A stretch of 64,000 nucleotides of DNA from an uncultured delta proteobacterium (GTDB taxonomy: Bacteria; Desulfobacterota; Binatia; UBA9968): the NCBI GenBank assembly GCA_963737905.1, contig CAVTUQ010000032.1, positions 21,096 through 85,095 of the forward strand. Direction: 5' to 3'. Below are positions 1,427 to 25,755 of the stretch, piece by piece. Position 1 is the first letter of the stretch. The number at the start of each line of letters is the position of its first letter. A program made the position numbers and the translations under genes. The notes below the pieces were generated by a model, which had not been told where the DNA came from, did not search any database, and saw only the letters and a program-made list of their open reading frames with translations.

Positions 1427-1466
1427 ATCAGGTGATCCCGGGTTTTTCGCTTCTAAATCCCTTAGG
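1427..1466 (-). promoter_or_regulatory. Box-A copy 1 (upstream of sulfatase)
   Basis: ATCAGG TGATC CCGGGT TTTTCGCTTCTAAATCCCTTAGG; matches eight other copies. Confidence 0.75.
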
Positions 1467-1485
1467 CGTGAGAACGCCACCACGA

Positions 1486-1628
1486 CTTCATCGAGTGCAT
1501 TGAGGAATACTTCGTCACTGAGCGGCTTGTGCAGAAATGCCACTGCGCCTGCCCGCAGCGCCCGCCCACGTACATCCGTCTCGTCGTGGGCAGTAATGAA
1601 AATCACCGGGAGAGTTTTTTTACTTCGG
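1486..1628 (-). pseudogene. 3' fragment of a single-domain response regulator, paralog of 9152-9294
   Basis: 143-bp gapless alignment to 9152-9294; encodes PVIFITAHDE...AGAVAFLHKPLSDEVFLNALDE; no N-terminal half. Confidence 0.85.
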
Positions 1629-1783
1629 CTGAGGGAATCTAGCGAAGATCTAACAGACTCTATATTGAACTTTGGTCCAACAGGGGGCGAAGGGGCCTAT
1701 CGCGCGAAGCCCCAAGAACGCAAAAGACGTCGATCCGTTAGTTAGACTAGAACAAAGACCCGATGATCTTTAAACCAGCCGGC

Positions 1784-3106
1784 TCAATACTCCGAGGGCT
1801 GGTTGCTCCAACTCGCCGGATCCGCACCCATCTTTTCCCCCAGGTCGCTTAGGTTGTTCATGGTCTCTTTGATGAACACCCCGGGGACCGGCGGGGACCA
1901 ATCGCCGGGGATCGACACGACACGCACCTCGACATCGGCCTTGCGCTTGAGCCGTGATATCTCGGCCATCGCGAAGAGATGACGGATGGCGGTCGACGTA
2001 GCCGCGCGCGTGGACGTCTCCAGGCTTCGTGAAATGACCGCCGGCCAGTTCGGCGGTGTCACCTGCGGTATGGGACGGAACTGATTGTTGAAAATCACCC
2101 AGTAGCGGATCTTAGGGATCGGTAGGTTCGGATAAGCCTTCTGCCATAGCGCCGGTAGACTGTCCTCTTCTCCTATCCGCCCGCCATAGATGATGTTGCC
2201 CGTCACGCCGCCGTCAACATAAAGCTGATCGTCGATCATCCGGAACGGAAACGCGCCTGGGATTCCTGCCGAGGCGAGCATGATGCTGTGAATGCGGTCG
2301 ACCTGTCCCGAATCGGCGGCGCGCTGCGCTTCCGCCACCAGGTCGAACACCCGCGAGGTGCCCTCATCAAGGTCGGTCGTGTTGACTGCCAGGACCCGGC
2401 CGTCGGCGCCCGCCTTCGCGATGCGGCGAACCATGTCCAGGGTAATGTGTTTTTGCATCTCGCGCTCCAGTCCGGGCACCTCGGCGAACGAGATGTTGTC
2501 CGGCAAGAAATAGAGAAACCCGCGCTGTTTCACCCAGTCTGGCTCCGGGTTGCGATAGAGGTTCACGATCTCGTCGGCCGACTGTTCGTCGCCCAGGAAA
2601 GCGAACGGGGCGATCAAGGTCCCCGTGCTCACCCCGGTCACGGCATCAAATTCGGGTTTGGCCAGAGGGTGCTGGGCGGGGATCTTCCGCCACCCTTTGA
2701 GAAACCCCGCCCCGAAGGCTCCCCAATCGCCCCCACCCGAGATGATCAGGATGTCGATCACCGGCGGCGGCTGCCCTGCTGCGGCGCGCCGGTCGTATTC
2801 GGCCTTGGTGAGTTCGAGCAATTTGCCGAGCAGTTTGCGCGATGCCGCTACGGACTGTTCGTCGCCCCTGGTGCGCACCTTCAGGAGATCCTGCTCCGTA
2901 ACCGGTGGGCGCGTCAGGGCGGGGCCACAACCGCCCAACATGAGCCCCACCGCGAGTACCGACACCGCCATCAGTGAGCACCTCCGACGGGTGGCCACCG
3001 CACCGAGGGTAACGGCAGATCGCGGCGAACTTTGGTGTGAGCATGGGATGTTGTCCAACAAACTCGTAAAATCGTCGGAGTGTGATGGTTCTAGGTATTT
3101 TGCCAT
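1784..3106 (-). CDS. Patatin-like phospholipase, probable lipoprotein
   Basis: SGGGDWGAFG, GVSTG (GxSxG) and DGG motifs; lipobox-like LGGC. Alternative start at 2971 with GGAGG. Confidence 0.9.
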   Translation of the reverse strand: MAKYLEPSHSDDFTSLLDNIPCSHQSSPRSAVTLGAVATRRRCSLMAVSVLAVGLMLGGCGPALTRPPVTEQDLLKVRTRGDEQSVAASRKLLGKLLELTKAEYDRRAAAGQPPPVIDILIISGGGDWGAFGAGFLKGWRKIPAQHPLAKPEFDAVTGVSTGTLIAPFAFLGDEQSADEIVNLYRNPEPDWVKQRGFLYFLPDNISFAEVPGLEREMQKHITLDMVRRIAKAGADGRVLAVNTTDLDEGTSRVFDLVAEAQRAADSGQVDRIHSIMLASAGIPGAFPFRMIDDQLYVDGGVTGNIIYGGRIGEEDSLPALWQKAYPNLPIPKIRYWVIFNNQFRPIPQVTPPNWPAVISRSLETSTRAATSTAIRHLFAMAEISRLKRKADVEVRVVSIPGDWSPPVPGVFIKETMNNLSDLGEKMGADPASWSNQPSEY

Positions 3107-3191
3107 ATAATCTCCTTCTCTTGCTTCTTAACCTCTATGGGGTCAATTCCGCGCAGCTTGCTGCGTTATGTAAATCGAATATCAGAAGTCC

Positions 3192-3267
3192 GTGATACCC
3201 ACATGGCTTAAGCGGGAATCCAGGCGGGTTCGGAACTGACCCCCGATAAACGCATTCGGGGGTGATG
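3192..3267. repeat. REP/MITE-like palindromic element
   Basis: GTGATACCC...GCGGGAATCCAG...CCCCCGA-TAAACGCAT-TCGGGGG-TGA hairpin; related to 53067-53163. Confidence 0.6.
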
Positions 3268-3415
3268 CCTTGGAGGTAAACTTGCCGTCCGCGCCCGACG
3301 ACTTTTCTTGGCTTACACTTTGTCTTCAGCATCTAGCTGCCGGGGCCAAGTGTAAACACCCCCAGTCTACACCTAAAACTCGAAACCTGATCACTGTTTA
3401 CTGCTTACTATTTTT

Positions 3416-3847
3416 CTAAGTTGCCTTGAGCCAAGTCCGCGTCTGATAGAAAAACCCGAGATACCCGCGAAGCCTGAGTTTCCCATCTTCAACCCAGATT
3501 TCCACCGTATGGAGTTGACCGTCGTTGGGGTTTACGACGGTGCCCTTGTAACGATCTCCGGTAGAACTAAAGTCTCTCAAGATTACTAGCCCCAGGATCG
3601 GTTTGCCTTTGTCGGTGCCCGTGCACGCGATGCAGGTTTTTGGTTTGCCTTGTTTATCGTTCGGCTCAGGCAGGGCCACGATCTTGCCGAACAGTTTGCC
3701 GCTCTGTTCATAGATCTCTACTTCGGATGTGACCTTGCCGCTCTTTTCATCGACTGTTTTCCATTTGCCCACGGGTGACTGGGCCGCCAGAACCAAGCTA
3801 GCACCCACGAAGCTAATCAGAACTACGACAAAACAAAACCATTTCAT
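3416..3847 (-). CDS. DUF2147 family secreted protein
   Basis: Signal peptide; SPVGKWKTVD...C..C...KPILGL...LRGYLG..RTW pattern. Confidence 0.88.
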   Translation of the reverse strand: MKWFCFVVVLISFVGASLVLAAQSPVGKWKTVDEKSGKVTSEVEIYEQSGKLFGKIVALPEPNDKQGKPKTCIACTGTDKGKPILGLVILRDFSSTGDRYKGTVVNPNDGQLHTVEIWVEDGKLRLRGYLGFFYQTRTWLKAT

Positions 3848-4206
3848 CTATGTTGGTCCTCAGATCTGACTTTGGGCTTTGAAATAATTATTCGACTTGT
3901 GATCGTCCGGCGATCCTGTCACTCGGATGGGGTCACTCATGAAAAGTTTGTCAAGGTCCTCGTTGCTCGACGCGCCTCTTTTGGTAGGGTGGGGCTGAGC
4001 TGTTCAACCGGCTCACCCTTGTTTGTACCATAGTAGGACTAGACCATGGGAGAATAGAGTTCAATCCTACGCTGCTTGATGAGCAAAAAAACGGCGACCT
4101 GATGTGGACCACCCGCTATGCTGTGAGATAGATTTTATTTGAGCGTGCGACTGAGCTTTATGCGCAAACCCAGCAAGAGCGCAATCTCAACCAAACACTC
4201 GTGCGG

Positions 4207-4235
4207 TTGACATCTCCCAGGGCCGGCGATATTAC
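4207..4235 (+). promoter_or_regulatory. Sigma70-type promoter for the 4301 gene
   Basis: TTGACA-17 bp-TATTAC, 66 bp before ATG. Confidence 0.55.
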
Positions 4236-4300
4236 TCCGGCCAGAAAAAAAGGCGTTTAAATTTCCTATACATAAGTGTTTCTCAACCCGGGAGATAACC

Positions 4301-5050
4301 ATGGTACGAAAGATTCTGGTGCTCAGCGTGCTGGCAATGTCGCTTGCGGCACCGAGCACCTATGCGCAGACTGCGCCGGCGAGTGCTGTCGATCCGGCGT
4401 CGATTCAGGCCCTCAAGGACATGGGTGCGTTCTTGCAGACACTGAAGCGTTTTCAGGTGTCGACCGAACTGACCGGAGAGCGCGTTCTGGCCGATGGCCA
4501 AAAGCTGCAGCATACGGCGACGGCCGTTATCGACGTCGAGCGTCCGAACAAGATCCGCGCCCTGATGCATAGCGCCCGTTCCGAACGCGAGATCGTCTAC
4601 GACGGTAAGACGGTCACACTCTATACGCCGGCGCAGAAGTATTACTCGACGGTCGAATTCACCGACACGATCGGCAAACTGATCGAGCGGCTGGAGGAAA
4701 GGTACGGGGTGGAACTCCCGTTGGCGGATCTTTTCCTCTGGGGTACCCCAGCTGCGCCAGTCGACAAGATCGAATCGGCAATGAATGCCGGCCAGGATTT
4801 CGTCGGCGACGATCTCTGTGACCACTACGCCTTCCGGCAGGCCAAGGCCGACTGGCAGATCTGGATTACCGCCGGGAGCAGACCGCTGCCACGCAAGGTC
4901 GTGATCACCAATCGCACCGACGAAGCGCGCCCGCAGTCGGTTTCCCTGATCGACTGGAATTTGAAACCTACCTTCAAGGACACGGTTTTCAAGTTCACGC
5001 CGCCCAAGGGTGCGTCCAAGATCGAGATTGTTCCGGTGAAAACAAAGTAG
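4301..5050 (+). CDS. DUF2092 family periplasmic protein
   Basis: Signal peptide; RPNK, YDGKTVTLY, LPLADL, CDHYAFRQ..DWQIWI and F.F.PP motifs; GGGAG RBS. Confidence 0.88.
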   Translation: MVRKILVLSVLAMSLAAPSTYAQTAPASAVDPASIQALKDMGAFLQTLKRFQVSTELTGERVLADGQKLQHTATAVIDVERPNKIRALMHSARSEREIVYDGKTVTLYTPAQKYYSTVEFTDTIGKLIERLEERYGVELPLADLFLWGTPAAPVDKIESAMNAGQDFVGDDLCDHYAFRQAKADWQIWITAGSRPLPRKVVITNRTDEARPQSVSLIDWNLKPTFKDTVFKFTPPKGASKIEIVPVKTK

Positions 5051-5062
5051 AGGAGCGCCAAC

Positions 5063-5587
5063 ATGAAGAGATCATTCGGTAAGTTGTTTCCGGCCTCGTT
5101 GGCCGCTCTCGTTCTCGCCAGCTTCGCCATCGCCCCCTACGCTGATGCCGCCGCGGCTCGGGGCGGCGGTGGTGGTGCTCGCGCTGCAGGCGGCGGTGGG
5201 GGTGCTCGCGCTGCAGGCGCCGGTGGCGGCGCCGCCAGGCAGACTGCGCACGTCGACAACAGCAAGGCCGATGCCCGCACCAACAATGTCCGCAGCACTA
5301 GCGTCAATAACGTCAACAACGTCAACGTAGACCGCGACGTCAACGTCAATGTCGAAGGTCATCGCGGTTGCTGTGGCGGCTGGGACAATGACTACCATCC
5401 GGTCGCCACTGCAGCGGCAGTTACTGCTGGCGTCGCCGTGACTTCCGCCGTCGTCGGCTCGCTGGTGCGAAGCGTGCCGCCAAGTTGCGTGCCGGTAAAC
5501 TACGGTGGCATGGTCTATCAACAATGCGGAAGCACCTGGTATCAGCCCCAGGGACCGGAGTACGTCGTGGTCAATCCTCCGTATTGA
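5063..5587 (+). CDS. Secreted Gly/Ala-rich hypothetical protein with NVN repeats and a C-terminal YQQCGSTWYQP domain
   Basis: Signal peptide, GGGGARAA repeats, AGGAG RBS, 12 bp after the DUF2092 gene. Confidence 0.75.
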   Translation: MKRSFGKLFPASLAALVLASFAIAPYADAAAARGGGGGARAAGGGGGARAAGAGGGAARQTAHVDNSKADARTNNVRSTSVNNVNNVNVDRDVNVNVEGHRGCCGGWDNDYHPVATAAAVTAGVAVTSAVVGSLVRSVPPSCVPVNYGGMVYQQCGSTWYQPQGPEYVVVNPPY

Positions 5588-5703
5588 TTCCAAATGAGCT
5601 GTTGGTAAGGATAGCGCGGACCGATTACGCTGATGCCGGCCTGCGTCGTTGCAGCGAGCACGAATTCGGACGGCAAACGAATTGGGAGAACCTGGAGCCG
5701 CTG

Positions 5704-5840
5704 GAAATCATTCCCAGTCCGATAGAGCAAGCAACCGAGCCCGCATGCGATCACGCGCAGCGCCGGCGCGCATGAGTTGGGCCAGACTGCTCAAACGAGT
5801 CTTCGATATCGACATCGACGACTGGCCGAACTGAAAGATC
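5704..5840 (+). mobile_element. Remnant of an IS91/ISCR-family transposase C-terminus
   Basis: Encodes EIIPSP...ARMSWARLLKRVFDIDI, typical of IS91-family C-termini; frameshifted and truncated. Confidence 0.75.
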
Positions 5841-5865
5841 GGCCCGCTATTCCCTGTCACGATTT

Positions 5866-7374: not shown

Positions 7375-7457
7375 TGGCTTCTCCTTTTCTTCTTCAAGCA
7401 AAATACTTTACTATTCTTCGGCCTTCAGGGTCGAAATTCTCGGATTTGGAAATTCCT

Positions 7458-7564
7458 CCCGCCAAGGCGCAAAGGCGCCAAGTTCGGAGGGAGAAAGATA
7501 AATATTTTTACGAATTCTTTTCACCATTTTTTCCGACCTTAGCGGCCTTGGCGTCTTTGCGGGA
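7458..7564. repeat. MITE-like element with ~30-bp imperfect inverted ends
   Basis: CCCGCCAAGGCGCAAAGGCGCCAAGTTCGGA ... TCCGACCTTAGCGGCCTTGGCGTCTTTGCGGG. Confidence 0.7.
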
Positions 7565-9116: not shown

Positions 9117-9473
9117 CTATCTTTTAGCTTGCCTCCGGTCACGCTTAAGAGCTTCATCGAGTGCATTGAGGAATACCTCGTCACTGAACGGCTTGCGCAA
9201 AAAGGCCACTGCGCCTGCCCGCAGCGCCCGGTCACGTACGCTCACCTCGTCGTGGGCAGTAATGAAAATCACCGGGAGAGTTCTTTCACTTCGGACTAAG
9301 TGTTCCTGCACCTCCAGGCCGTTCATTCCTGGCATCTGCACATCAAGTACGACACAGTCTGGATGACACGACGGCATGGTCTCGATGTGCTCGATGAACT
9401 CGTGACCAGATGTGAACGTGTCGGTGTCCACTCCCAGGGAGCGAAGCAGCCGCCCAATCGCCCGGCAGACCGG
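9117..9473 (-). pseudogene. Single-domain (FixJ-like) receiver lacking its N-terminal DD strand
   Basis: PVCRAIGRLLRSLG...VVLDVQMP...FITAHD...FLRKPF; begins directly after the TAG of the 9474-9764 gene, in the same frame. Confidence 0.8.
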
Positions 9474-9764
9474 CTACTCTCTTCCGTTGCGCGTCGCTAG
9501 CCATACAGCCAGCATGCCCATGACGAATCCGATCGCCAAGCCCATAGCCACAGACCGCAGCGGTTCGTGCTTGATGCGATGGGTCGCATCGTCTATCAAA
9601 TCTTCCGTTGCGGCACGACCCCGCCTGGCCAACCGCCGGGCAGCAATCACTCGGTCTTCGACGGCCTGAGAAGCTTCGGTCTTGAGCCGCGAGACTTCAT
9701 CTCCCACTTCCATCAGCCGCTCTCTGGCTTTCCCGAGCAAGCTACTTTTGTCATTCTCTTCCAT
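9474..9764 (-). CDS. DUF883/ElaB-YqjD-like tail-anchored protein
   Basis: Helical N-terminus, IKHEPLRSVAMGLAIGFVMG C-terminal TM; AGGGAGG RBS. Confidence 0.75.
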   Translation of the reverse strand: MEENDKSSLLGKARERLMEVGDEVSRLKTEASQAVEDRVIAARRLARRGRAATEDLIDDATHRIKHEPLRSVAMGLAIGFVMGMLAVWLATRNGRE

Positions 9765-9886
9765 AGTGATCCCTCCCTTTGTTTACGGTTTTGTTACTTC
9801 GATCGACCAAAGCTTTGCACAACTTGGAGATTAAATGAATAGGAACGGTTCTAATGAAACTTATTTCGACGCGCTGACCGTTTACT

Positions 9887-9924
9887 ATCCGGGATTCTCT
9901 GATTTAAGCTTCCAAATCCCTTAG
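9887..9924 (-). promoter_or_regulatory. Box-A copy 2
   Basis: ATCCGG GATTC TCTGAT TTAAGCTTCCAAATCCCTTAG. Confidence 0.75.
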
Positions 9925-9994
9925 AGAAGGAGAGACGTAGAGTCCAGCCGCATGACCCTTGGAGGGCCCTATCGATGGGTATAATCATCTACCG

Positions 9995-10441
9995 CTATTT
10001 CTTGAGCTTGATTGTTACACCGCTCGGCGCCAGTTGAAGCAAGGCTTCTTCAGAATCTCCTCGCAGATGCAAGACGACGCCGTTTTTGTTGCGCATGAAT
10101 ATGCCGCCCATAGTCCCCGCCAAGGCAAATCCGGCCTCGCCGGCTAAGTAGGTTCCTTCAAACTTGGAGACGTCTGTCAGATTGTAAACTTCTCCCACCG
10201 CGCTCGCTTTGGCGATCCCAATATCAACGAGTGTGAGACCGTTGACGGCGAACAGCTGGTGCTTGCCTTTGAAAATCAGCCTACCATCGCCCCAGTTAAC
10301 CCCGACCGCCAGGGCAATCGAATTGCTTTCGATCGATATTTTTCCAGACGGTGCTGGGCTTTGCCCGTAAGCGTCATGGGTCGCACAGACCGCCAACAAA
10401 ACGAATTGCGTGAGCACAGCGAATATTGGAACTTTGACCAT
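9995..10441 (-). CDS. Secreted beta-rich protein, DUF1134/EipA-like
   Basis: Signal peptide; GVNWGDG.L.FKG, GEVYNL..F.G.Y and MRN.NGVV motifs. Confidence 0.7.
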   Translation of the reverse strand: MVKVPIFAVLTQFVLLAVCATHDAYGQSPAPSGKISIESNSIALAVGVNWGDGRLIFKGKHQLFAVNGLTLVDIGIAKASAVGEVYNLTDVSKFEGTYLAGEAGFALAGTMGGIFMRNKNGVVLHLRGDSEEALLQLAPSGVTIKLKK

Positions 10442-10642
10442 AGGACTCTCCTCGTGTAGTGATTAAACCAGACGAAGTACCAACGCGTGCGACAGTACAC
10501 TAGAAACTCTTCCCCGTGCCACAAAAGATCCCGGGATCAATATTCTGTGCATCCCGAAACGGAGTGCTCAAAGCCACGAACTGAATCTGGGATACGGGGG
10601 GTTACTCAGAAGAAACTTACTTTGGGTGGTCTACGATTCGCT

Positions 10643-10683
10643 ATCGGGGCTGCCCTGATTTTTGCCTGCCAAATCCCTTAAGG
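10643..10683 (-). promoter_or_regulatory. Box-A copy 3
   Basis: ATCGGG GCTGC CCTGAT TTTTGCCTGCCAAATCCCTTAAGG. Confidence 0.8.
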
Positions 10684-14504: not shown

Positions 14505-15436
14505 GTGTCAGACTTGCCTAAATCTACTAACTCTTAGTCGTTTCTTTTGCAACGCCCGGCTGATGTTGGACGGATGACAAACGAGAAACCCGGCGACTTC
14601 AGAAGCAAGGTAGCCTTGTTCAAAGACCGCCTCGCGGATGAATCGATCCCGAGCCGCCACGATCCTGGCCATCCGTCCCTTGCGCCGCAACGTTTTCGGG
14701 TCGAGCCCAGCTTGAGTAGCCAGTTTTTTGACGATGTCTTCCAAAGGGATTCGCCTCGATGTGGGCGGCGCCGTTTTCTCTTTGGCCAATTGCTTGACGA
14801 ATTTCTCTGGACCCAAAAACGGCGCCTGTTCCCCCGGATGCCATTCCGCGCGGTAACCCTCCTTCACTCCGTCGCGTATGAATTCTTCATATCGGGCTGC
14901 ATTTCCTAGCTCTTCCATCACCGGTCCAGGATCGATCAGCCCGCGCTTTTGTTTACCCAAGTACTCCCCATGCCCGCTCCACGGCCATTCTATCGGCCGC
15001 TTCACCACACCGGCGCGCACGGGATTAAGATGAATATACCGTACCAACTCCATTAAATAGCTATCTTGATCGCATAGAATCGCTTTGTAGCGCCCTTGAA
15101 ACAAATGACCCCTATGGTGATGGGTGCGGTTAAATCGCTTGACGTAGCTGGTTAGAAGCGATTGCAGGATACGTGCGGTCGAGAAGCGTTGAACTTCCAA
15201 AAGTAAATGGAAATGGTTGGACATCAAGACGTAAGCATAAAGGTAAAACGGATAACGCTTGCGGACAACTTGCAGTGCTTCCAGAAACGCTTCGTAGTCG
15301 TATTGCCTTAAGAAGATCCTCTGCCCGTTATTCCCACGGGCTATGACATGATAGAGCAATCCTTCTGCATGTACTCGAAGATGCCGTGGCATGAACCGGG
15401 AATATCAAAGTTAGTGGAGTTAGGCAAGTCTGACAC
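14505..15436. mobile_element. 932-bp element: HUH/Y1 transposase bounded by 28-bp terminal inverted repeats
   Basis: Left 14505-14532 GTGTCAGACTTGCCTAAATCTACTAACT; right 15409-15436 revcomp GTGTCAGACTTGCCTAACTCCACTAACT (26/28 identical). Confidence 0.85.
14508..15392 (-). CDS. RAYT-like Y1 (HUH) transposase with C-terminal DnaA_C-like HTH
   Basis: YHVIARGN, AYVLMSNHFHLL (HUH), FQGRYKA, RYIHLNPVRAG (catalytic Tyr), WPWSG. Confidence 0.92.
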   Translation of the reverse strand: MPRHLRVHAEGLLYHVIARGNNGQRIFLRQYDYEAFLEALQVVRKRYPFYLYAYVLMSNHFHLLLEVQRFSTARILQSLLTSYVKRFNRTHHHRGHLFQGRYKAILCDQDSYLMELVRYIHLNPVRAGVVKRPIEWPWSGHGEYLGKQKRGLIDPGPVMEELGNAARYEEFIRDGVKEGYRAEWHPGEQAPFLGPEKFVKQLAKEKTAPPTSRRIPLEDIVKKLATQAGLDPKTLRRKGRMARIVAARDRFIREAVFEQGYLASEVAGFLVCHPSNISRALQKKRLRVSRFRQV

Positions 15437-15600: not shown

Positions 15601-16200
15601 TTAGCTCTTGAGCGCCTCCGGTACCGGCATCTTGAGAAGGGTCAGGACCTCGGCTGCCTTAACCTTTACAGAGCTCGCTTTAGCCACTGCGTCCATCAGG
15701 TTACCGCCCTTCGAAGCCTCAGTCGCCGCCGTCCATTGCTGCGTGATCTCGTTCAGACCGGCTTTTGCTTGGGCCAGGGTTTCCGCCGACATTCCGGCCG
15801 GAAGCTTCTTACTCTGCGAAAGGATATCCACGCGGCTTTTAATCGCCTCTACCACCCGGGGCATCCCGGAGCTCAATCCTTCCCAGCTTTTCGTAAGCTC
15901 CGCTTTTTTCTTGGCCGCAGCACTGGCCAACTCCTGGGCTTTGGACGTGACTGTCGACGCGTCCGACATCACGGCTTTGTAATCGCCCTTGTTGAATTTC
16001 TCTCTCATGGCTGCCAAAGCAGAATCCAACGAGTTTGCCTGGTCCGGCATGTATTTACTCACCTCGCCTTTTGCAGTGTTGATGGCCTCCTCCGCTGCCT
16101 TGAGCGCCGTCTCCGCCGGGCCTTTGTCGGCGTTGCCACAAGCCGCTAGCACCGCGGCGGCTAGAATCATGACGAAAAAATTATAAACGTGTCGATGCAT
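15601..16200 (-). CDS. Helical lipoprotein, function unknown
   Basis: Lipobox LAAC; Ala/Lys-rich helices; AAGGAG RBS. Confidence 0.8.
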   Translation of the reverse strand: MHRHVYNFFVMILAAAVLAACGNADKGPAETALKAAEEAINTAKGEVSKYMPDQANSLDSALAAMREKFNKGDYKAVMSDASTVTSKAQELASAAAKKKAELTKSWEGLSSGMPRVVEAIKSRVDILSQSKKLPAGMSAETLAQAKAGLNEITQQWTAATEASKGGNLMDAVAKASSVKVKAAEVLTLLKMPVPEALKS

Positions 16201-16247
16201 GACTTCTCCTTTTCATCGAATATGTTGGCTTCCGAGAATGCTGAAGC

Positions 16248-16502
16248 TCATGGAATGCGAAGCTTCTGACCGATGTTGATCCGGTTCGGGTCTTTGAGAG
16301 TGTCCCGGTTAGCATCGAAAATTTTCGGGTACAGGTTGCCGTCGCCGTAGTACTGCTCAGCAATTTTCCAGAGTGTTTCGCCCTTCTTGACTTCATGCCA
16401 CTGAGTCGTATCAAAGGCATCTGCATCGCTTTCAGTTTTATTTTCGTCCGTGGGACCGATATCGGGTATTGCCCACGGGTCGGGGGTTTTTTTGTCTTCC
16501 AT
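16248..16502 (-). CDS. LysM peptidoglycan-binding protein (Kbp/YgaU C-terminal-like)
   Basis: HEVKKGETLWKIAEQYYGDG.LYPKIFDANR..LKDPNRI..GQKLRIP. Confidence 0.9.
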   Translation of the reverse strand: MEDKKTPDPWAIPDIGPTDENKTESDADAFDTTQWHEVKKGETLWKIAEQYYGDGNLYPKIFDANRDTLKDPNRINIGQKLRIP

Positions 16503-16657
16503 AAAGTCCTCCTCTGTCTGGTTAATCGGCTAAGACAGTCTAGTGTTCCGATTTGATCTTCTGGTAGAACCCAAAACTCGAAACCACAAAATTGCAAACT
16601 CGCCTACGGAAAGCCGTCTGTCTGTTTCGTCACTACTCCAGTAGTTGGCTGACTGCT

Positions 16658-16697
16658 ATCGGGATTTTCCTGATTTCGGCCTCCGAAATCCTTTACG
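16658..16697 (-). promoter_or_regulatory. Box-A copy 4
   Basis: ATCGGG ATTTT CCTGAT TTCGGCCTCCGAAATCCTTTACG. Confidence 0.8.
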
Positions 16698-16708
16698 AGA
16701 CATACCAA

Positions 16709-17462: not shown

Positions 17463-17954
17463 CTAGACCTTGACCCCGAGTGCAGTGGACAGATCCTTGA
17501 TCGTCGCGGCTTCTTGCTCGCTCACTTGCGTGCCGCCAAAGCCAAGGAATCCGCCCTCCTTGGCGGCCTCGGCGACCTTCTGCGAAACGGAGACAAGCCA
17601 CTGCTTGAACCCTTGAGCTTCGTCTGGTTTCGCTTTCTTCTCGATGAGCGCGGCCACCTGCCGCACACTGTCAATCGAATAGCTCTTTACCTGGTCCGGC
17701 GTTTTGCCTTTCAGTTCCGCCGGAGCGCTCAAGTCTCGCGCTCCCGCCTCAATGTCGGCTACCAGCGCTTTGATCAGTTCATTGGATGATCCTTGCGTCT
17801 TGACTTCGCCGAGCATTTTCCCCACCGCGAACATTTCCTTTACCACTCCGAACGGGCCACTCGGACTGGCCGCAACTACAGCCAGACCCGCCATGAAAGG
17901 CGCGCGCTGGATCTCTTTCCACTCTTCCGCCGTAAAATCCGCCTTCGTCGCCAT
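17463..17954 (-). CDS. Conserved hypothetical protein (MATKADFTAEEW type)
   Basis: Strong RBS; VAEAAKEGGFLGFGG..VSE.E motif. Confidence 0.8.
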   Translation of the reverse strand: MATKADFTAEEWKEIQRAPFMAGLAVVAASPSGPFGVVKEMFAVGKMLGEVKTQGSSNELIKALVADIEAGARDLSAPAELKGKTPDQVKSYSIDSVRQVAALIEKKAKPDEAQGFKQWLVSVSQKVAEAAKEGGFLGFGGTQVSEQEAATIKDLSTALGVKV

Positions 17955-18053
17955 AAATACCTCCTCTTTTTTTGTGAGGCCGATTAGAGCTGCTAATGCG
18001 ATGATGCCACCTCTGATTATCGAGAGTCCTATCGCGGCGGCGGTGCACGCTCC

Positions 18054-18093
18054 ATCGGGATTACCCGTATTTTGGGGTTCTAAATACCCTAGC
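18054..18093 (-). promoter_or_regulatory. Box-A copy 5
   Basis: ATCGGG ATTAC CCGTAT TTTGGGGTTCTAAATACCCTAG. Confidence 0.75.
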
Positions 18094-18212
18094 GAGCTAC
18101 TGAAAAGCTATACTCGTGCTTCGAGACCTCAGCACGAAAGGAAAATCTCCAATGATCTCAACCGCCTCTCCGTTCGCCTTAGAACAGAGCAGTCATCGGT
18201 TTAGCAGATCTC

Positions 18213-18953
18213 TTATCTGCGAGGTCGGTCGCCCTCGACGGGAACTCTCCTTGATGGATCTTCCTCACCGAGCCAGAGGTAGGTCCATCCGGCGAGTATA
18301 GCGCCTATGATCGGCGCCAGCCAGAAGAGCCAAAGCTGGGAGAGGGCCCAGCCTCCGACAAAGATTGCCGGGCCTGTACTTCGGGCCGGATTGACGGAGG
18401 TATTGGTGACGGGGATGCTGATCAAATGGATGAGTGTCAACGCAAGGCCGATGGCGATACCGGCAAACCCGGCAGGCGCGCGCCCGTGGGTGGAACCCAA
18501 GATAATAATGAGAAACATATAGGTCATCACAATTTCGCAGACCAAAGAGGCAAAGAGAGAGTAGCCGCCCGGAGAATGGGCTGCATAGCCGTTGGCGGCA
18601 AACCCGCTTTGAACGAGATCGAAACCCGGTTTGCCTGTGGCGATGAGATAGATCACAAAAGCGCCGGCAATCGCGCCGAGCACCTGCGCTATAATGTACG
18701 GAAATAAATCGGAAGTGGGGAAACGCTTGCCCGCCCACAAGCCGAAAGAAACAGCCGGGTTGAGATGGCAACCAGAGATGTGACCAACGGCGTATACCAT
18801 CGTTAGGACGGTTAGACCGAAAGCAAGAGCGACTCCGTAAAAGCCGATCCCGAGATCGGGAAAGGCCGCCGCTAAAACCGCGCTCCCGCATCCCCCGAGC
18901 ACCAACCACAAGGTTCCAATAAACTCTGCTGCAAGACGCTTGGATAAAGGCAT
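18213..18953 (-). CDS. aqpZ: Aquaporin Z
   Basis: [12 protein letters not shown] and TSVNPARS (two NPA motifs); [21 protein letters not shown]. Confidence 0.96.
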
Positions 18954-19010
18954 GAGTCCCTCCTCGTGTCCAGTCTTCCCTGAGCGTAATTGAGCGGTCT
19001 ATGCTCCGCT

Positions 19011-19050
19011 ATCGGGTTTTCCCTTATTTTGGGGTTCTAAATATCTTAGG
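19011..19050 (-). promoter_or_regulatory. Box-A copy 6 (upstream of aqpZ)
   Basis: ATCGGG TTTTC CCTTAT TTTGGGGTTCTAAATATCTTAGG. Confidence 0.75.
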
Positions 19051-19074
19051 GACGGCCGGTTCATAGTCAGGAGA

Positions 19075-19542
19075 TCAAGAACCACTTTGGCGGCGAGGAG
19101 AAAGCTTCTCCGGTTCTCGTTTGAGGTCTGCCCAATAGGAGAACCCTTCACTGTCCTTAGCTTCAGCTCTAAGTATGCGTTCGGAACTTCCGGAATCCGC
19201 AAAAAGCTGCAGTGTCATCTGGCCGCCCTTATCGGATTTGGCGCTGAGCTTGCCGTCAGTTAAAACTAACTTTCCTTTCCCGGCGAACACCCCGATCATC
19301 CGATAGCTGACGAACTCGTACGCTCCCGTTTCACCGATGGCGAGAGTCACCCAGTCGTCGTCTCGATTCCGGGGATTTCGAACCAAGAGTCCTTCCCATT
19401 TTCCAGCAACACTCTTCATATCGGTTACTGTGGTCGGCTGCCATTGCCGTTTTTCTTTAGGATCCATCAAGCTGCATGCGACCATCCCTTGCACCGCAAC
19501 GATCACCGCAATCATCCCTAAACTTCGTTTGAGTCTTGTCAT
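19075..19542 (-). CDS. Hypothetical lipoprotein
   Basis: Lipobox MVAC; SVAGKWEG beta-barrel-like start; CAGGAG RBS. Confidence 0.75.
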   Translation of the reverse strand: MTRLKRSLGMIAVIVAVQGMVACSLMDPKEKRQWQPTTVTDMKSVAGKWEGLLVRNPRNRDDDWVTLAIGETGAYEFVSYRMIGVFAGKGKLVLTDGKLSAKSDKGGQMTLQLFADSGSSERILRAEAKDSEGFSYWADLKREPEKLSPRRQSGS

Positions 19543-19599: not shown

Positions 19600-22365
19600 T
19601 TAGTCATGCAGTTCGACCTTTGACCGCAAGGGACGGCGGATGCCGAGTTTTAGCATGCGTGAGCGCAACGTGCTCGGATTCAGGCCAAGAATTTTCGCCG
19701 CTCCTTTTGGCCCCTCAACCCGCCACCTAGTTTGCTCCAGAATACGCAGGATATAACCTTTCCCAACTTCGTCCAGTGAGATCTCTTCCAACGGGCGATG
19801 ATTATTTTGAAGCTGCACTTCCTTCGCTGGTGGAGCCGGCAACGTATTCGAGGCCTTCCCACCCGCGGCCCACTCCTCCGGAAGTTGGAGCCGGCGCCCG
19901 ATCGAAATCACGGCTGCTCTCTCAATCACGTTCTGCAGCTCCCGGATGTTGCCCGGCCACTCATAGCGCTTGAGCGCCTCCAATACCTCCTCCGAAATCG
20001 GATCAAATAATCGTCCCAACCGCCGGCTCGCTTCCCGCAAAAATATTTCCGCCAACAATCCTACGTCTTCCCAACGCTCCCTTAACGGCGGTAACCCGAT
20101 CGGATAAACGTTTAGTCGATAATAAAGATCAGGACGAAACCTCCCTCTTTGCATTCCCTCCACCAAATTACGGTTGGTCGCCGCGATCACCCGCACGTCG
20201 ACTTTGACCGTCTTACCGCTCCCCAACCGCTCAAACTCCCCCTCCTGCAAGACCCGCAGCAGCTTGGCCTGCAGCTTCAACGGCAAATCCCCCACCTCAT
20301 CCAAAAAGATGGTCCCCCCATCCGCTAACTCAAACCGCCCCACTTGCTTACCCGTGGCCCCTGTAAACGCTCCCTTCTCGTGCCCAAACAACTCACTTTC
20401 GATCAGCTCTCCAGGTAGCGCCGAACAGTTCACCTTCACCAGTGGCTTGTCTCTTCTCGTGCTCTTCTCATGGATCGCCCGCGCTACCAATTCCTTTCCT
20501 GTTCCCGTCTCTCCCAGGACGATGACAGTCATGTCCGTTCCCGCTACCTGATTCATTTGATGAAGCACTTTGCGGATTCCCTCACTCTGGCCGATGATTT
20601 CGCGATAGGCGTGCGCCTCAGAGACTTCTCTACGCAGATACACGTTCTCCGCTTCCAGGCGCTCCTTGAGTCGCTCCACTTCCGTCAACGCCCGCTTCAA
20701 CTCCTCTTCCGCGCGCTTGCGCTCTATCTCAGCACCCGCCCGCGCTGCAAAGATTTCCAGTATGGATCTGGCACGCTGTTCGTTACCGAGAGGTTTATTG
20801 TCAATGATGCAGAGATTCCCTATGAGCTGCCGGGCTGAATTGAACAGTGGAGCTCCCATGTAACTAACGGCATTGAGAGCTGCGAGCGATCTGCATTGAG
20901 GAAACATCTCTTGAACTCGCTCCCGGCAATAGAAGAGCTTTTCTTCGCGCACGACCTGCCCGCAAGGGGCATCGGCGACGTCATATTCATAATTTTCTGC
21001 CCAACTTTTGCCCACCCACACCGCAACGGTTCTCAATCTTGGGTTCTCTTCATTCGTTAACTCTGCTACGGCAGCATAGTGGACCTCGAGCACGGCCGCG
21101 ACATGACCCACATAGGCTGGAAAAAATTCCTCTCCCGTCACCGCGGTTCCGGCCACGAGATCTTGTAGCGCCTGTTCGGTTCGCTTGCGCTCGGTGATGT
21201 CTCGCACGACACTCAAGATCTTGTCTCCATTGTGCCGTACCATCCGCGCTTCATAGTCGCGTGTTGCCCCCTCGATACATAGCGAATATTCCTGAACGAC
21301 GGTTTCCCTCGTGTCCATCAGAGACTCGAAACAACGCGCAAACGTTTGGGCCAATTCCGGCGGCAGCACCTCCCTCATATTTTTCCCTAGAAATTTTTCA
21401 GGTGCCACGAGCAAAGCCTTCGGGTCCTTCGCGTGATAGTCCAGATATACGCCGTCTTGGCTCTGGACGAACATCAGATCCGGCAAAGCCTGGAGGATAG
21501 CGCGATTTGTCTCTTCGCTCTCGCGCAGCTTTTCCTCGGTTTTCTTGCGCTCGGTGAGGTCGATGGCAAACACGACGCCGCGGTTAGGCATACCGGGAAG
21601 CATCCCGCCGCCGATAAGCACAGGGACCCGGCGGCCGTCCCGCCGCATGTAGTGCTTCTCATAGGGAGTACAAACACCCCTGGTCATCGCCTCTTGGATC
21701 GCCTGCTTGTCCAGTTGAAGCTGATCCGATGGGGTGAGTACTCCGCAACACAACTTGCCCTCGTCGAGCTCGGCACGGCTAAAGCCGGTCAAACCCAGGT
21801 AGGCGTCATTGGCATTTGTGATGCGTCCATCGAGATCCCAAAAGGCAACCGGGACCATGTTGCTCTCATATATTCCCCGAAACTTTGCGTCCCGGTCCGC
21901 CAACGCGCTTTCCATCTGCTTGCGTTCAGTGATGTCGATATGGGTGATCACCACGCCACCCGGATTCGGCGGCAGTGGATCGACATTCATCAGAAACCAC
22001 CGGTGCCGCCCTCTGGGCTCGTGACAAGGATACTCCAATGAGATCCTGGCGAGCCGTCCGGCCAACACCGCTTCAATTCCCTCCAATGCTTGCTGGGCGA
22101 GCGGGTCGCCTTGTCGTGAGGCGGCCCTGCAGACCGCCAGGTAGTCTGCGCCAAGCCCGATCCCGACCCAATCTGCGCCGTTTTCGAGCGCAAAGTTGAG
22201 CCAGGAACGACTCGCGTAATTTACCCGACCCTGGCGATCCAGAGTGACAACATAAGCCGATAAGGAATCCAAGATCGCCGCCAGCGCCGCATTGCTGCCC
22301 CAGCTCGGCTCTTCTACTTCGGCTGCACCGCGTTCCCAGTGCATTTCTTTCATTTCATTCTCCAC
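19600..22365 (-). CDS. Sigma54-dependent activator (PAS-PAS-PAS-GAF-AAA+-HTH, FhlA-like)
   Basis: [54 protein letters not shown]. Confidence 0.95.
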   Translation of the reverse strand: MENEMKEMHWERGAAEVEEPSWGSNAALAAILDSLSAYVVTLDRQGRVNYASRSWLNFALENGADWVGIGLGADYLAVCRAASRQGDPLAQQALEGIEAVLAGRLARISLEYPCHEPRGRHRWFLMNVDPLPPNPGGVVITHIDITERKQMESALADRDAKFRGIYESNMVPVAFWDLDGRITNANDAYLGLTGFSRAELDEGKLCCGVLTPSDQLQLDKQAIQEAMTRGVCTPYEKHYMRRDGRRVPVLIGGGMLPGMPNRGVVFAIDLTERKKTEEKLRESEETNRAILQALPDLMFVQSQDGVYLDYHAKDPKALLVAPEKFLGKNMREVLPPELAQTFARCFESLMDTRETVVQEYSLCIEGATRDYEARMVRHNGDKILSVVRDITERKRTEQALQDLVAGTAVTGEEFFPAYVGHVAAVLEVHYAAVAELTNEENPRLRTVAVWVGKSWAENYEYDVADAPCGQVVREEKLFYCRERVQEMFPQCRSLAALNAVSYMGAPLFNSARQLIGNLCIIDNKPLGNEQRARSILEIFAARAGAEIERKRAEEELKRALTEVERLKERLEAENVYLRREVSEAHAYREIIGQSEGIRKVLHQMNQVAGTDMTVIVLGETGTGKELVARAIHEKSTRRDKPLVKVNCSALPGELIESELFGHEKGAFTGATGKQVGRFELADGGTIFLDEVGDLPLKLQAKLLRVLQEGEFERLGSGKTVKVDVRVIAATNRNLVEGMQRGRFRPDLYYRLNVYPIGLPPLRERWEDVGLLAEIFLREASRRLGRLFDPISEEVLEALKRYEWPGNIRELQNVIERAAVISIGRRLQLPEEWAAGGKASNTLPAPPAKEVQLQNNHRPLEEISLDEVGKGYILRILEQTRWRVEGPKGAAKILGLNPSTLRSRMLKLGIRRPLRSKVELHD

Positions 22366-22645
22366 AGTGACTTGCCTTTACTCGACCCCGGCAAGCGCCT
22401 CTAAAAAATGGCGCCAGGCCGCTGACACGGTTCTGTGTTCGGTTGGGTCGAGATCCGCGCCGCCTGCGCTCGCGTTATCCACGAATTACCTAATTTACCG
22501 AAGAAAAGGAATTCCTGCAATTAGACTTTGGTCCAATACAGGATCACTCTGGGAATGTAGATCGTGCTTTACCGGATCCACATGGAATCCGTTTGTGGGA
22601 GCCTATCTTAGAAAAAAGGTTATTCCGGGTTTCTGGAAGAAGTAT

Positions 22646-22790
22646 TCACCACAGAGGCGCCGAGTTCCCAGAGATCGGAGAATTTTTGAATCTAGAACTC
22701 TTTACTCCGCGTCCTCCGCGCCTTCGCAGTTCGGCAGGCTCACTGCGTCCTGAGCCCGCCGAAGGACGCGGTGCAATCTCCGAGTTCTTC
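22646..22790. repeat. Composite MITE/REP-like element
   Basis: CACCACAGAGGCGCCGAG...CTCCGCGTCCTCCGCGCC interrupted by CCTTCG...GGCTCA...CCTGAGCCCGCCGAAGG; resembles 40940-41115. Confidence 0.6.
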
Positions 22791-22893
22791 TTCACAGGAA
22801 TGCCTGAAGTCCCAGAAAAAAAAGAGCGCCAGCGGCATTCCCTCGCGGGATTGCTCAGCCCTGGCGCTCCGAGCCGGAGTTTATCCGAAAATC

Positions 22894-23605
22894 CTAGTTG
22901 ACTTTAATCTCGACTCTGCGGTTTTTGGCTCGACCTTCCGCGGTCTTGTTATCAGCGATCGGTTTGGATTCTCCGAATCCCTGACCCGAGACCCGGCCGC
23001 CGTCCACGCCATGTTTCACCACATAATCCCTAACCGACATCCAGCGTCGATCGGATAGCTTCAAATTGTAGGCCTCCGTCCCGATGCTGTCCGTGAAACC
23101 CGATAAAGCGACTTTCTTATCTTTGTTCTCGTTCATGAACGCTACCAGCCGATCGAGAATCTTCGCCGCTTCAGGCTTGATCGTGCTCTTGTCAAAATCG
23201 AACAACACGTCATCCAATATGATCGTCCGCTCGACCTTCGGCGCCGGTGGCGGTGGTGGCGGTGGGCGGCTTTGGTTTCGGCGGCGGTGGTGGCGGCGGT
23301 GGTGGTGGCGGCGGTGGTGGTGGCGGTGGCGGTGGTGGCTTAGGTTTGGGCTCCTGCGCTAGCAAGTACCCCAGACCGCCGCAAAGCAAAGCGCCGGTCG
23401 TCATGCCGATCGCCACCCCAGCGCCTATGTTTCTCTTATGACCTTCCACACCATTGTTTGCGGCCACTCCTCCACCCGCTGCTCCGGCCGCTCCACAGGT
23501 GATCGCACCCACGGTTGCCGCCTGCCACTTAGTCATCCCCGCACAGCCGTTTAGAACAAGACCTACGCCAACGACAACTCCCAGCCAACGTTTTTTGCCA
23601 GTCAT
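22894..23605 (-). pseudogene. OmpA-family lipoprotein with poly-Pro linker, frameshifted at ~23265
   Basis: Lipobox LNGC, Gly-zipper, Pro run; FDFDKS.IK...G.GES.P.ADN.T.EGRAKNRRVEI lies in another frame. Confidence 0.88.
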
Positions 23606-23669
23606 CGTTCCTCCCATCACATGAATACTTTCGCTCTAAGATTTATTTGCATATTTCGAAAAAAATTAA

Positions 23670-23710
23670 ATCAGGAAAAACCCTAGTTTGAGCCTCGTTT
23701 TCCCTTAGGG
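23670..23710 (-). promoter_or_regulatory. Box-A copy 7
   Basis: ATCAGG AAAAAC CCTAGT TTGAGCCTCGTTTTCCCTTAGGG (spacer 1 bp longer). Confidence 0.7.
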
Positions 23711-24070
23711 ACAATTTCCTCAAAGAAAATTTCCCATGAGCCACAATCTTACCCGGTCAGTCTTAACACTCCCCCGGCGCTGCTCCAACTATCATTGACC
23801 GAGGATTGCGATCAGTCCTTTGAAATCGATGATACAAGCTTGTGGAGATGATCTGGGTCACCTACACGAATGTCACTTCAAATGCGGCGGGGATGAGAAT
23901 ATGAAGGGTCGGGCGGATTGCTCACCGAACGGTGTGTTGATAAAACCGTCAGGAGACCTGTCGATTCAAGTTAGGCTCGTTGATGCGCGAAGAGCGCCAG
24001 CAGGCCACTAAGAGATCGCTGGATCTCCGGCGTGCCTGTGGCGCTCCAACCCGCACTTTGTCTGGAAATT

Positions 24071-24799
24071 CTAATTCACTTTTATTTCGACTCTGCGGTT
24101 TTTGGCTCGACCTTCCGCAGTCTTGTTGTCAGCGATCGGTTTGGATTCGCCAAATCCCTGACCCGAGACCCGGCCACCCTCCACTCCGTGCTTCACCACG
24201 TAATCCCTGACCGACATCCAACGCCGATCGGAGAGCTTCAGATTGTAAGCCTCCGTCCCGACGTTGTCTGTGAAACCCGCTAGGGCGACCTTCGAACCTT
24301 TGTTTTCGTTCATGAAAGCAACCAGCCGATCGAGAATCTTCGCCGCCTCGGGCTTGATCGTGCTCTTGTCAAAGTCAAACAAAACGTCATCCAGTATGAT
24401 CGTCCGCTCAACTTTCGGCGCCGGTGGCGGTGGTGGCGGTGGCGCCGGCTTTGGTTTCGGTGGCGGTGGCGGTGGCGGGGGAGGGGGTGGCGGAGGCGGC
24501 GGCGCTGGCTTTGGCGCAGGCGGTGGTGGTGGCTCCGGCGTCAGTAAATACGCCAGCCCGCCACAAATCAAAGCGCCGCCGAATAAGCCCGCAGCTGCTC
24601 CTGCCGGTACACGCATGTGTACATTCGCATCATTATTGTTTGCTACCAGACCTCCGGCCACTGCCGCCGGGAATCCACAGGCCGCAGCGGCGATTAATGC
24701 ATTTTCAGTTCTAGTTCTGTTCGACATCCACGCGCAGCCGTTTAGAACTAGACCCGCACCAACAACCACTGCCAGCCAAGATTTTCTATCGCTCATCAT
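24071..24799 (-). CDS. OmpA-family lipoprotein with poly-Pro linker
   Basis: Lipobox LNGC; OmpA C-terminal domain nearly identical to 22894-23217. Confidence 0.93.
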   Translation of the reverse strand: MMSDRKSWLAVVVGAGLVLNGCAWMSNRTRTENALIAAAACGFPAAVAGGLVANNNDANVHMRVPAGAAAGLFGGALICGGLAYLLTPEPPPPPAPKPAPPPPPPPPPPPPPPPKPKPAPPPPPPPAPKVERTIILDDVLFDFDKSTIKPEAAKILDRLVAFMNENKGSKVALAGFTDNVGTEAYNLKLSDRRWMSVRDYVVKHGVEGGRVSGQGFGESKPIADNKTAEGRAKNRRVEIKVN

Positions 24800-24896
24800 T
24801 GCTCCCCTTCCATTTGATAGAATAAATTCAGCCGCTGTATGTCAAGTTCTTCGAAAACACTCAGCGCAACCCTAGTAGATCGCGAAAATTAATGAA

Positions 24897-24935
24897 ATCA
24901 GGAAAACCCTGATTTTGGCTTCGCTTTTCCCGGGG
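24897..24935 (-). promoter_or_regulatory. Box-A copy 8 (perfect palindrome)
   Basis: ATCAGG AAAAC CCTGAT TTTGGCTTCGCTTTTCCC. Confidence 0.8.
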
Positions 24936-24958
24936 CGAGAAATCATTGCTTTTGGCAG

Positions 24959-25648
24959 CTAGAGCGTAGTCAGGCCTTCGCGAATACAATATTTCGTGAG
25001 CCCGGCGATGCTTCGTATTTCGAGCTTGTCCATGACCTGTTTGCGATGCGTCTCAACCGTCTTGACGCTGAGCTCGAGTCTTGCCGCGATATCCTTTGTC
25101 GATTTTCCTTCCGCGATCAATTGTAGCACTTGCAGTTCTCTTTTTGTTAGGTGTTCGGCTTGCCCTGCAACACCACCGGAAGGCCCGGCCTTCAGACTGG
25201 CGAGAGCCGCCGTTTTAGTAATTGCCGGACTCAGGTACATACCACCGCGGCTAATGGCAATCAGAGCTGTGGACAGTTCTTCAAAAGCAGAATCCTTCAG
25301 TAAATAGGCGGACGCTCCGGCTTGAAGAACTTGCAGGACATAATTTCTTGTGGCGTGCATGCTTAATACGACGACCTCAACCTCAGGCAACTCGCTCTTG
25401 ATCTGTCGCGTCGCCTCGATTCCATTTAAATTGGGCATCGCGATATCCATAATGACGACGTCAGGACGCATTTCTATCGCCAACTTCACGGCCTGGTAAC
25501 CGTCATCGGCCTCCGCAATACATTCGAAGTCACCACTTCTTTCCAACAACGAGCGCAGCCCCTCCCGCATGATCCTGTGGTCATCAGCGATGATAGCTCT
25601 CTTGACCATGGGGGGAACCAGGTTGCTTTTTCTTTCAACCACTTTCAA
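24959..25648 (-). CDS. NarL/LuxR-family response regulator
   Basis: IADDH, MDIAMP, YLLK, LTKRELQVL...SVKTVETHRKQVMDKL; alternative ATG at 25609. Confidence 0.95.
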   Translation of the reverse strand: MKVVERKSNLVPPMVKRAIIADDHRIMREGLRSLLERSGDFECIAEADDGYQAVKLAIEMRPDVVIMDIAMPNLNGIEATRQIKSELPEVEVVVLSMHATRNYVLQVLQAGASAYLLKDSAFEELSTALIAISRGGMYLSPAITKTAALASLKAGPSGGVAGQAEHLTKRELQVLQLIAEGKSTKDIAARLELSVKTVETHRKQVMDKLEIRSIAGLTKYCIREGLTTL

Positions 25649-25717
25649 TCACACCGTAGCGTCAAATGACTTATCGTCACGACCTTCTAGATAATATAAA
25701 CTTACAGACAAACCCCT

Positions 25718-25755
25718 ATTGGGGCTACCCTGATTTTAGCTTCGATTTTCCTTAG
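25718..25755 (-). promoter_or_regulatory. Box-A copy 9 (between the two response regulators)
   Basis: ATTGGG GCTAC CCTGAT TTTAGCTTCGATTTTCCTTAG. Confidence 0.75.

Follow-up and report, generated by a model that had tools for sequence, protein, structure and literature searches.

A bipartite inverted-repeat element before envelope and stress genes of an uncultured Binatia bacterium: a probable operator for NarL-type response regulators

Introduction

NarL-family operators that overlap the −35 region of a promoter are a well-known kind of element. NarL itself recognizes pairs of heptamers in a 7-2-7 arrangement, and regulators of the NarL-type group are served by partner kinases of the HisKA_3 type. 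Activators of the LuxR/TraR type likewise place a GerE-type helix-turn-helix (HTH) dimer on a palindrome that overlaps the −35 region, the lux-box being centered near −42.5, and act as class-II-like activators; they sense acyl-homoserine lactones, are not phosphorylated, and use a site of 20 bp. In Pseudomonas fluorescens, CrbR, which belongs to the LuxR family, depends on an imperfect inverted repeat of 17 bp (−52 to −36) that abuts an RpoD promoter, and the section of that study devoted to the site reports that the motif, named ACTU, is conserved before regulon genes across genera and that CrbR was tested by reporter in E. coli (PMC5715377). Here, we analyze Box-A, a bipartite element of ~45 bp that recurs in a 64,000-nucleotide stretch of DNA from an uncultured Binatia bacterium (assembly GCA_963737905.1, contig CAVTUQ010000032.1, positions 21,096 to 85,095); this whole stretch is called the window, and positions refer to it unless a contig is named. 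An initial annotation of the window had noticed the element and proposed it as the operator of two local NarL-type regulators. To our knowledge, next to nothing has been learned of how genes are regulated in Binatia and other uncultured phyla. Comparing the copies of Box-A within the genome, among relatives, and across phyla, we find that the element is most likely, as judged from these sequence comparisons, a docking site for a NarL-type response regulator.

Results

The window holds nine copies of Box-A, all intergenic and in one orientation, each sitting between two minus-strand genes that run the same way, with the start codon 50 to 202 nt from the first Box-A base. A profile built from the nine copies finds nine of nine in the 6.7-Mb genome (E 5e-10 to 4e-7), and the reduced pattern ATCRGG-N5-CCYGAT with at most one mismatch is matched at five of the nine sites against 0.71 expected, a count of five or more being reached in none of 100 shuffles. 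Right of window position 25,760 there are zero profile matches, even when matches are listed to E ≤ 10. The initial annotation was accurate on most of these points: its nine copies are all present at their positions, all nine share the orientation that it described, the identities of the downstream genes, from the sulfatase to the NarL gene, agree in Pfam and open reading frame (ORF) scans, and it had seen none right of 26 kb. Two details are revised here. Of its range of 58 to 202 bp upstream of a gene, the upper end stands and the lower end gives way to a measured 50; of its consensus, the palindrome stands and the length does not, as the block extends on the gene side as GATAGCG and is followed by a positioned −10-like box.

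Read in gene sense, 19 aligned copies give the full consensus CCTAAGGnATTTnGAAGCnnAAAATCAGGGnAnTCCCGATAGCG, which can be summarized as CTAAGGnATTTnGAAGC-nn-AAAATCAGGG-N3-CCCGATAGCG and is longer than the motif first described. At its core lies a 17-bp imperfect inverted repeat, ATCAGGG-N3-CCCGAT, and 22 bp (two helical turns) upstream of this core there is a degenerate second site, CTAAGGnATTTnGAAGC, in which a CTAAGGnATTT block repeats the left arm and the center of the core. The weaker second site about two turns away that the annotation had in mind is thus found as a repeated left half-site and, at some loci of other phyla, as a second inverted repeat that is nearly complete (ATCAGG-N5-CCCGAG in locus L162 is one such case). 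Among the aligned copies, conservation of Box-A is lowest in the GAAGC block, and the stretches that separate the conserved blocks diverge in the manner of a protein footprint. The arms of the core are conserved as sequence and not as base pairs: the repeat positions pair in 73.7% of cells, compared to 75.6% in shuffles, and at one "pair," 15 of the 19 copies show no pairing. Two inverted half-sites separated by a short spacer are what characterizes the operators of NarL/FixJ regulators with their GerE-type HTH.

The placement of Box-A relative to a predicted core promoter is equally regular. A TAnnnT sequence begins at offsets 22 to 23 after GAT(A) in 9 of the 21 copies found in the genome (see below), against a background of 0.7% per position, and TA alone occurs at these offsets in 14 of the 21; in the window, TAnnnN begins 23 to 24 nt past the T of GAT in six of the nine copies. 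This spacing of the −10-like box is also kept in a sister genus and in other phyla. Counting back from TAnnnT, the T of GAT would fall near −35 and the upstream site near −65, and the inverted repeat, spanning about −51 to −35, would be centered at about −43, the geometry of a class-II activator. The −35 region (TAGCGn) is poor and overlapped by the core repeat, and none of the nine window promoters passes a generic TTGACA/TATAAT scan. Box-A hence lies, as an operator does, in promoter regions and at a fixed position to the core promoter, reckoned from the predicted start.

To define the copies in the whole genome, we took profile matches at E < 0.01, since a strict 38-nt pattern allowing 3 mismatches returned only 4 matches there. 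The resulting set comprises 21 copies on seven contigs (C32, C7, C21, C8, C40, C16, and C29), with the nine window copies among them. An ORF begins 28 to 250 nt downstream of every one of the 21; 18 are intergenic, compared to 17% of random positions, and an open frame of at least 150 codons covers 3 of the 21, compared to 829 of 1,000 random positions. The flanks of the copies are unrelated to each other. The genome-wide scan that the annotation had called for thereby also answers its question of whether the motif occurs equally inside or behind genes, as a mobile repeat would: it does not. Beyond the window, the copies precede genes for a second sulfatase, a second EipA-like protein, a tandem-Usp protein, a PAS hybrid kinase, a GT4-type glycosyltransferase, a Rap1a-like protein, an alpha/beta hydrolase, an HTH_17 protein, and a TPR protein, and two more genes, for a P-type cation ATPase (E 0.14) and a DUF748/AsmA-like protein (E 0.42), are preceded by sites below the cutoff. 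On contig C21 (26067-26143; locus L013, ~4067-4145), two copies stand back to back and divergent, one facing the TPR-protein gene and the weaker (E 0.14) facing the P-type cation ATPase gene. On contig C8, the glycosyltransferase promoter has a partial duplicate 6.5 kb away (193886-193911 versus 200369-200420); near-identity extends over ~45 nt, which take in the −10 side and the core repeat, and the upstream half of Box-A is absent.

Two paralogous response regulators with REC and GerE (NarL/FixJ-type) domains are encoded on the minus strand of the window. RR1 (24959..25648), with the recognition helix KTVETHRKQVMDKL, is preceded by Box-A; RR2 (25770..26417), with the helix KTIETHRKQIMDKL, follows directly behind a kinase gene and has no Box-A in front. 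Both helices are as the annotation had quoted them. In a six-frame scan of the genome, the ETHRKQ[IV]M helix occurs in three ORFs only, RR1, RR2, and a third on contig C21, all three on motif-rich contigs, and the four other homologues of the genome among the matches listed (71 in all), on C34, C30, C9, and C7 at 92 kb, have no box nearby. The best curated family match of RR1 is MctR (NCBIfam NF052445), with 190.1 bits for RR1 and 180.0 for RR2 against a cutoff of 300, which places RR1 outside the MctR/CrbR equivalog group. Relatives with solved structures are VraR (E 3e-36), NarL (E 9e-32), DesR, DevR, EvgA, and RcsB. The kinase (26417..27250, minus strand; 277 aa) is identified by domain scan as a short HisKA_3/HATPase_c histidine kinase in which the same scan recognizes no sensor domain; it is the presumed partner of RR2, and the best reading of the arrangement is that kinase and RR2 form an upstream operon. 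About 40 nt before this operon, in the spacer 27251-27630, a σ54-like TGGCAT-N5-TTGCG sequence occurs at 27292-27307 on the minus strand, where ~0.09 chance matches of such a site are expected, and a gene for a MASE1-PAS-GAF σ54 activator (27631-31302) lies directly upstream of the spacer; a second PAS-GAF activator gene (19600-22365) lies amid the Box-A genes. An enhancer-binding protein could therefore feed the two-component system.

Conservation of Box-A is strong within the genus and falls off outside it. Each of two congeneric species yielded 12 matches, which precede orthologues of the aqpZ, MATKADF, DUF883-like, LysM, glycosyltransferase, hybrid kinase, HTH_17, and RR1 genes and of both EipA-like genes, so the putative regulon is conserved in the genus. 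At E ≤ 0.1, among 151 genomes of the class, the genome studied here has 26 matches, 10 others have one each, and 140 have none (the tallies of relatives without a match include two genomes flagged as unpublished, G006 and G012, and positive claims rest on neither). Nine of the ten single matches are weak, with no regulator near the match and several in apparent coding sequence, and for these reasons we take them as chance. The tenth, in a genome of another genus of the same family (G048), is that genome's sole strong match (E 2e-5) and falls exactly between an RR2-like and an RR1-like gene. This genome has a single RR1 orthologue (62% identity), situated beside the RR2-like gene; the spacing to a TATATC box is the same, and a weaker second copy of Box-A lies behind the RR1-like gene. 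When the region upstream of RR1 is aligned for four genomes, the invariant columns cluster in the box and the flanks diverge.

The association extends beyond the class. Scanning one genome per species for peptide patterns from the RR1/RR2 alignment gave 80 loci in many phyla, of which the two nearest outside ones are titled "Candidatus Binatia bacterium." The Binatia-derived profile detects the composite box in 15 of the 80, and a profile rebuilt from those matches gives 23 matches at E ≤ 0.1 in 18 of the 80 loci and none in reversed sequences. Thirteen matches are co-oriented with the regulator gene and less than 300 bp from it, 3 upstream and 10 directly behind it, where they serve the next gene, which is also the layout of the window. 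The genes behind the boxes vary: they encode HisKA_3 kinases, REC-only proteins, the regulator itself, SSF/Amt transporters, or superoxide dismutase. In five such genomes searched whole, the best match was on the regulator's contig in all five, as were 8 of the 10 matches. Because the neighbors vary by phylum and the best matches fall on the regulator contig, the regulator is the sole constant partner of the box, and in other phyla the pair seldom extends beyond the locus of the regulator. Box and regulator gene therefore co-occur and adjoin across genomes, as operator and regulator would, with counterexamples that are weighed below.

The nine window copies, all on the minus strand, can be listed from left to right with their genes. 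The copy at 1420..1467 (profile match, E 3e-9) precedes a sulfatase gene (PF00884, E 1.5e-68) with its start codon at 1355. The copy at 9879..9926 has a predicted −10 box, TAAGTT, at 9858-9863 and precedes the gene for a 96-aa DUF883_C-like tail-anchored protein (9474-9764), and that at 10636..10683, with TAAGTT at 10614-10619, precedes an EipA/DUF1134-like gene (9995-10441). A LysM gene (16248-16502) and a lipoprotein gene (15601-16200) follow the copy at 16651..16698 (predicted −10 TAGTGA, 16630-16635), and the gene for a 163-aa protein named MATKADF (17463-17954), for which a family search gave no family, follows the copy at 18047..18094 (predicted −10 TAGGAC, 18026-18031). Next come the copy at 19004..19051 (predicted −10 TACGCT, 18983-18988), before the MIP/aquaporin gene aqpZ (18213-18953), and two copies before OmpA-like genes: a profile match at 23663..23710, before a split gene (23210-23620 plus 22894-23217), and the copy at 24889..24936 (predicted −10 TAGGGT, 24869-24874), before an intact one (24071-24799). 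The last copy, at 25710..25757 (predicted −10 TATTAT, 25691-25696), precedes RR1 and is conserved in four genomes of two genera.

Several features of these target genes deserve mention in their own right. Directly behind the DUF883-like gene lies an ORF for a stand-alone receiver domain (9117-9431; 104 aa, GTG start, possibly longer), and owing to this position it may be cotranscribed from the Box-A promoter at 9879-9926; in other phyla, too, the box is followed by REC-only genes (L091, L126, and L087). Behind the box at 16651..16698, the longest ORF (16181-16597; 138 aa, TTG start) has an implausible, R/K/S/T-rich composition, and the overlapping 84-aa ORF at 16248-16502 is the real LysM gene. 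Amid the row of Box-A genes there is an ORF of 294 aa (14508-15392) that encodes an IS200-like Y1 transposase domain (PF01797); IS200 transposases are typically shorter than this. The two OmpA-like lipoprotein paralogues (22894-23620 and 24071-24799) both have a long proline-rich (PPPP...) linker, and the first consists of two overlapping ORFs (23210-23620 and 22894-23217), the frame changing within or close to the proline tract; possible causes are a genuine frameshift and misassembly of a CCN repeat. Four soil metatranscriptome runs contained 6 to 18% of the sampled words; their short assembled contigs, which are from relatives and mostly 90 to 99% alike, cannot reveal transcript starts, and some of them chimerically fuse the two OmpA-like paralogues (joint 24122 to 22954).

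Discussion

In this study, we compared copies of Box-A from one genome, its genus, its class, and other phyla, and we consider it likely that the element is the upstream half of an activator-dependent, σ70-type promoter and the site of a NarL/FixJ-type regulator with an ETHRKQ[IV]M helix. What the comparisons show is the motif, where it lies, how far it is conserved, and how it is linked to the regulator genes; from this we infer binding and its sign (activation), and what can be said of the acting paralogue and of the signal is read from the same features. A phosphorylated dimer of the regulator would bind the core, the candidates being RR1 and RR2 in the window and the third paralogue on contig C21; another dimer would probably occupy the upstream site, and both would recruit RNA polymerase in the style of class-II activators. 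As the RR1 gene itself carries Box-A, RR1 would be under feedback or downstream of the kinase-RR2 operon. About 20 promoters of this genus may be driven by the system, and the putative regulon includes genes for the aquaporin, OmpA-like, EipA/DUF1134-like, DUF883-like, LysM, and Usp proteins, sulfatases, a P-type ATPase, a hybrid kinase, and a glycosyltransferase. The set looks like an envelope or general-stress program, whereas the label "osmotic" is only a guess from gene content. Both central proposals of the initial annotation gain from the comparison: that Box-A would be the operator of the local NarL-type regulators is supported by the sister genus, by the 18 loci from many phyla, and by the five genomes searched whole, and that the motif would tie envelope proteins of unknown function to aquaporin and OmpA is supported by the box that they share and that is conserved in the genus.

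Several observations weigh against this reading. In the genome itself, the right half of the upstream site is unlike the right half of the core. In other genera of the family, the NarL-type homologues have at most 50% identity and the motif is absent, so the co-occurrence of box and regulator rests on few independent lineages; in the Binatia metagenome-assembled genome L131, whose RR2-like helix reads ETHRKRFM, the RR2-like and RR1-like genes nearly abut with no box between them; and 62 of the 80 loci with homologous regulators have no box at E ≤ 0.1. Two RNA contigs (18912-19193 and 18883-19260) span the aqpZ box, which fits read-through or DNA carry-over. The overlap of the repeat with the predicted −35 region also counts here, as such a site could equally serve repression. 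The same regulators would then use the same site as a repressor operator, occluding −35 and leaving the genes on when the regulator departs. We find this unlikely: a poor −35 and promoters that fail a generic σ70 scan without exception are typical of activator-dependent promoters, a fixed second site two turns upstream fits recruitment better than occlusion, and CrbR, the nearest studied analogue at this position, is an activator according to the section on its site. A different transcription factor might instead bind Box-A, with the ETHRKQ[IV]M regulator genes being frequent targets of it. The linkage is indeed purely positional, and the loci that lack a box, L131 among them, are in keeping with such a factor; still, the near-confinement of the box to the regulator's contig in genomes of other phyla, with varying neighbors and a constant regulator, and a short-spacer inverted repeat suited to a GerE-type dimer make this explanation quite unlikely.

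Two further explanations dispense with a response regulator altogether. Box-A could be the promoter of an alternative σ factor of the extracytoplasmic function (ECF) type, for example with GAAGC as −35 and CGATAG as −10, 16 nt apart; the distance from nGAAGC to CCGATAG is ~16 nt and the gene content resembles general-stress regulons, but a separately positioned TAnnnT 22 to 23 nt downstream is conserved between genera and between phyla, conservation is lowest in the GAAGC block, the element travels with the response-regulator gene, and no σ-factor gene was seen among the scanned ORFs of the window, which leaves this idea very improbable. Least credible of all, to the point that we give it almost no weight, is a structured nucleic-acid element, such as a terminator hairpin with a T run on the antisense strand or an RNA motif, or else a small mobile repeat. 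Three of the nine copies do score as terminator-like hairpins on the plus strand, where G-T wobbles would pair, yet the flanking genes are codirectional, so there is no antisense transcript for a terminator to stop, and there is neither covariation nor any Rfam match to the whole window. On these grounds (no compensatory changes, no Rfam family, hairpins in three of nine and only antisense), we rejected a structured RNA or intrinsic terminator; a repetitive extragenic palindromic (REP) sequence or miniature inverted-repeat transposable element (MITE) was rejected for the strict orientation toward the downstream start in all 21 copies, the almost exclusively intergenic location, the unrelated flanks, and the divergence between blocks. 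A σ54 promoter (GG-N10-GC, TGGCAC-N5-TTGCW) was dismissed as well, with 31 matches in the window against 29.3 expected and, on the minus strand, no match between any window box and its gene.

Literature text searches, with subscription journals outside their coverage, found among the papers listed no description of Box-A, of the ETHRKQ helix, or of this regulator subfamily. What thus appears to be undescribed is this particular pairing of box and regulator, together with the bipartite 45-bp architecture, the occurrence in many phyla, and the growth to a regulon of ~20 promoters in one Binatia genus. More tentatively, and with less confidence than we place in the operator itself, the pair may be ancient and nearly unchanged over at least eight phyla (by record titles, Chloroflexota, Armatimonadota, Latescibacterota, Planctomycetota, Desulfobacterota-type "delta," Kiritimatiellia/Victivallales, Coriobacteriia, and Binatia), local in most of them and extended in one Binatia genus to more than 20 promoters, where it would act as the general envelope-stress response of the cell instead of a dedicated stress σ factor. 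If the proposed operator holds, Box-A offers a first regulon map of this lineage, read straight from sequence, in which some ten proteins of unknown function (DUF883-like, EipA-like, MATKADF, LysM/lipoprotein, and OmpA-like with proline linkers, among others) would join the aquaporin in one envelope or stress program. Box and regulator would form a portable system that is testable in E. coli, and the case would exemplify how one circuit can be local in many phyla and govern a large regulon in one genus.

Among known systems, CrbR and its ACTU motif come closest to Box-A in the layout of the site, namely, a 17-bp repeat just before a σ70 promoter and a regulator with REC and LuxR-type domains. 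The half-sites differ, being approximately TACGACC...GGTCGAA for CrbR and ATCAGGG...CCCGAT for Box-A, and the section on the CrbR site describes no second upstream site such as Box-A has; the regulon of CrbR is for acetate use, and the kinase of CrbR is a large STAC/SLC5 hybrid, whereas the kinase of the window is short. The solved relatives NarL, VraR, DesR, DevR, and RcsB belong to the same fold family as RR1 and RR2 and bind as dimers to inverted half-sites; their half-sites differ from those of Box-A in sequence and spacing, and none of the relatives named in the structure matches has the ETHRKQ[IV]M helix. With the LuxR/TraR-type activators, the binding mode proposed for Box-A would be shared, while their site is unrelated to it in sequence. 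In gene content, the likeness is to the stress regulons of RcsB, DosR/DevR, RpoS, and EcfG, which include Usp, ElaB/DUF883-like, OmpA-like, aquaporin, and EipA/DUF1134-type genes, as do the targets of Box-A. What would set the Box-A program apart from these regulons is its control by a two-component regulator of another subfamily, acting through a box of its own.

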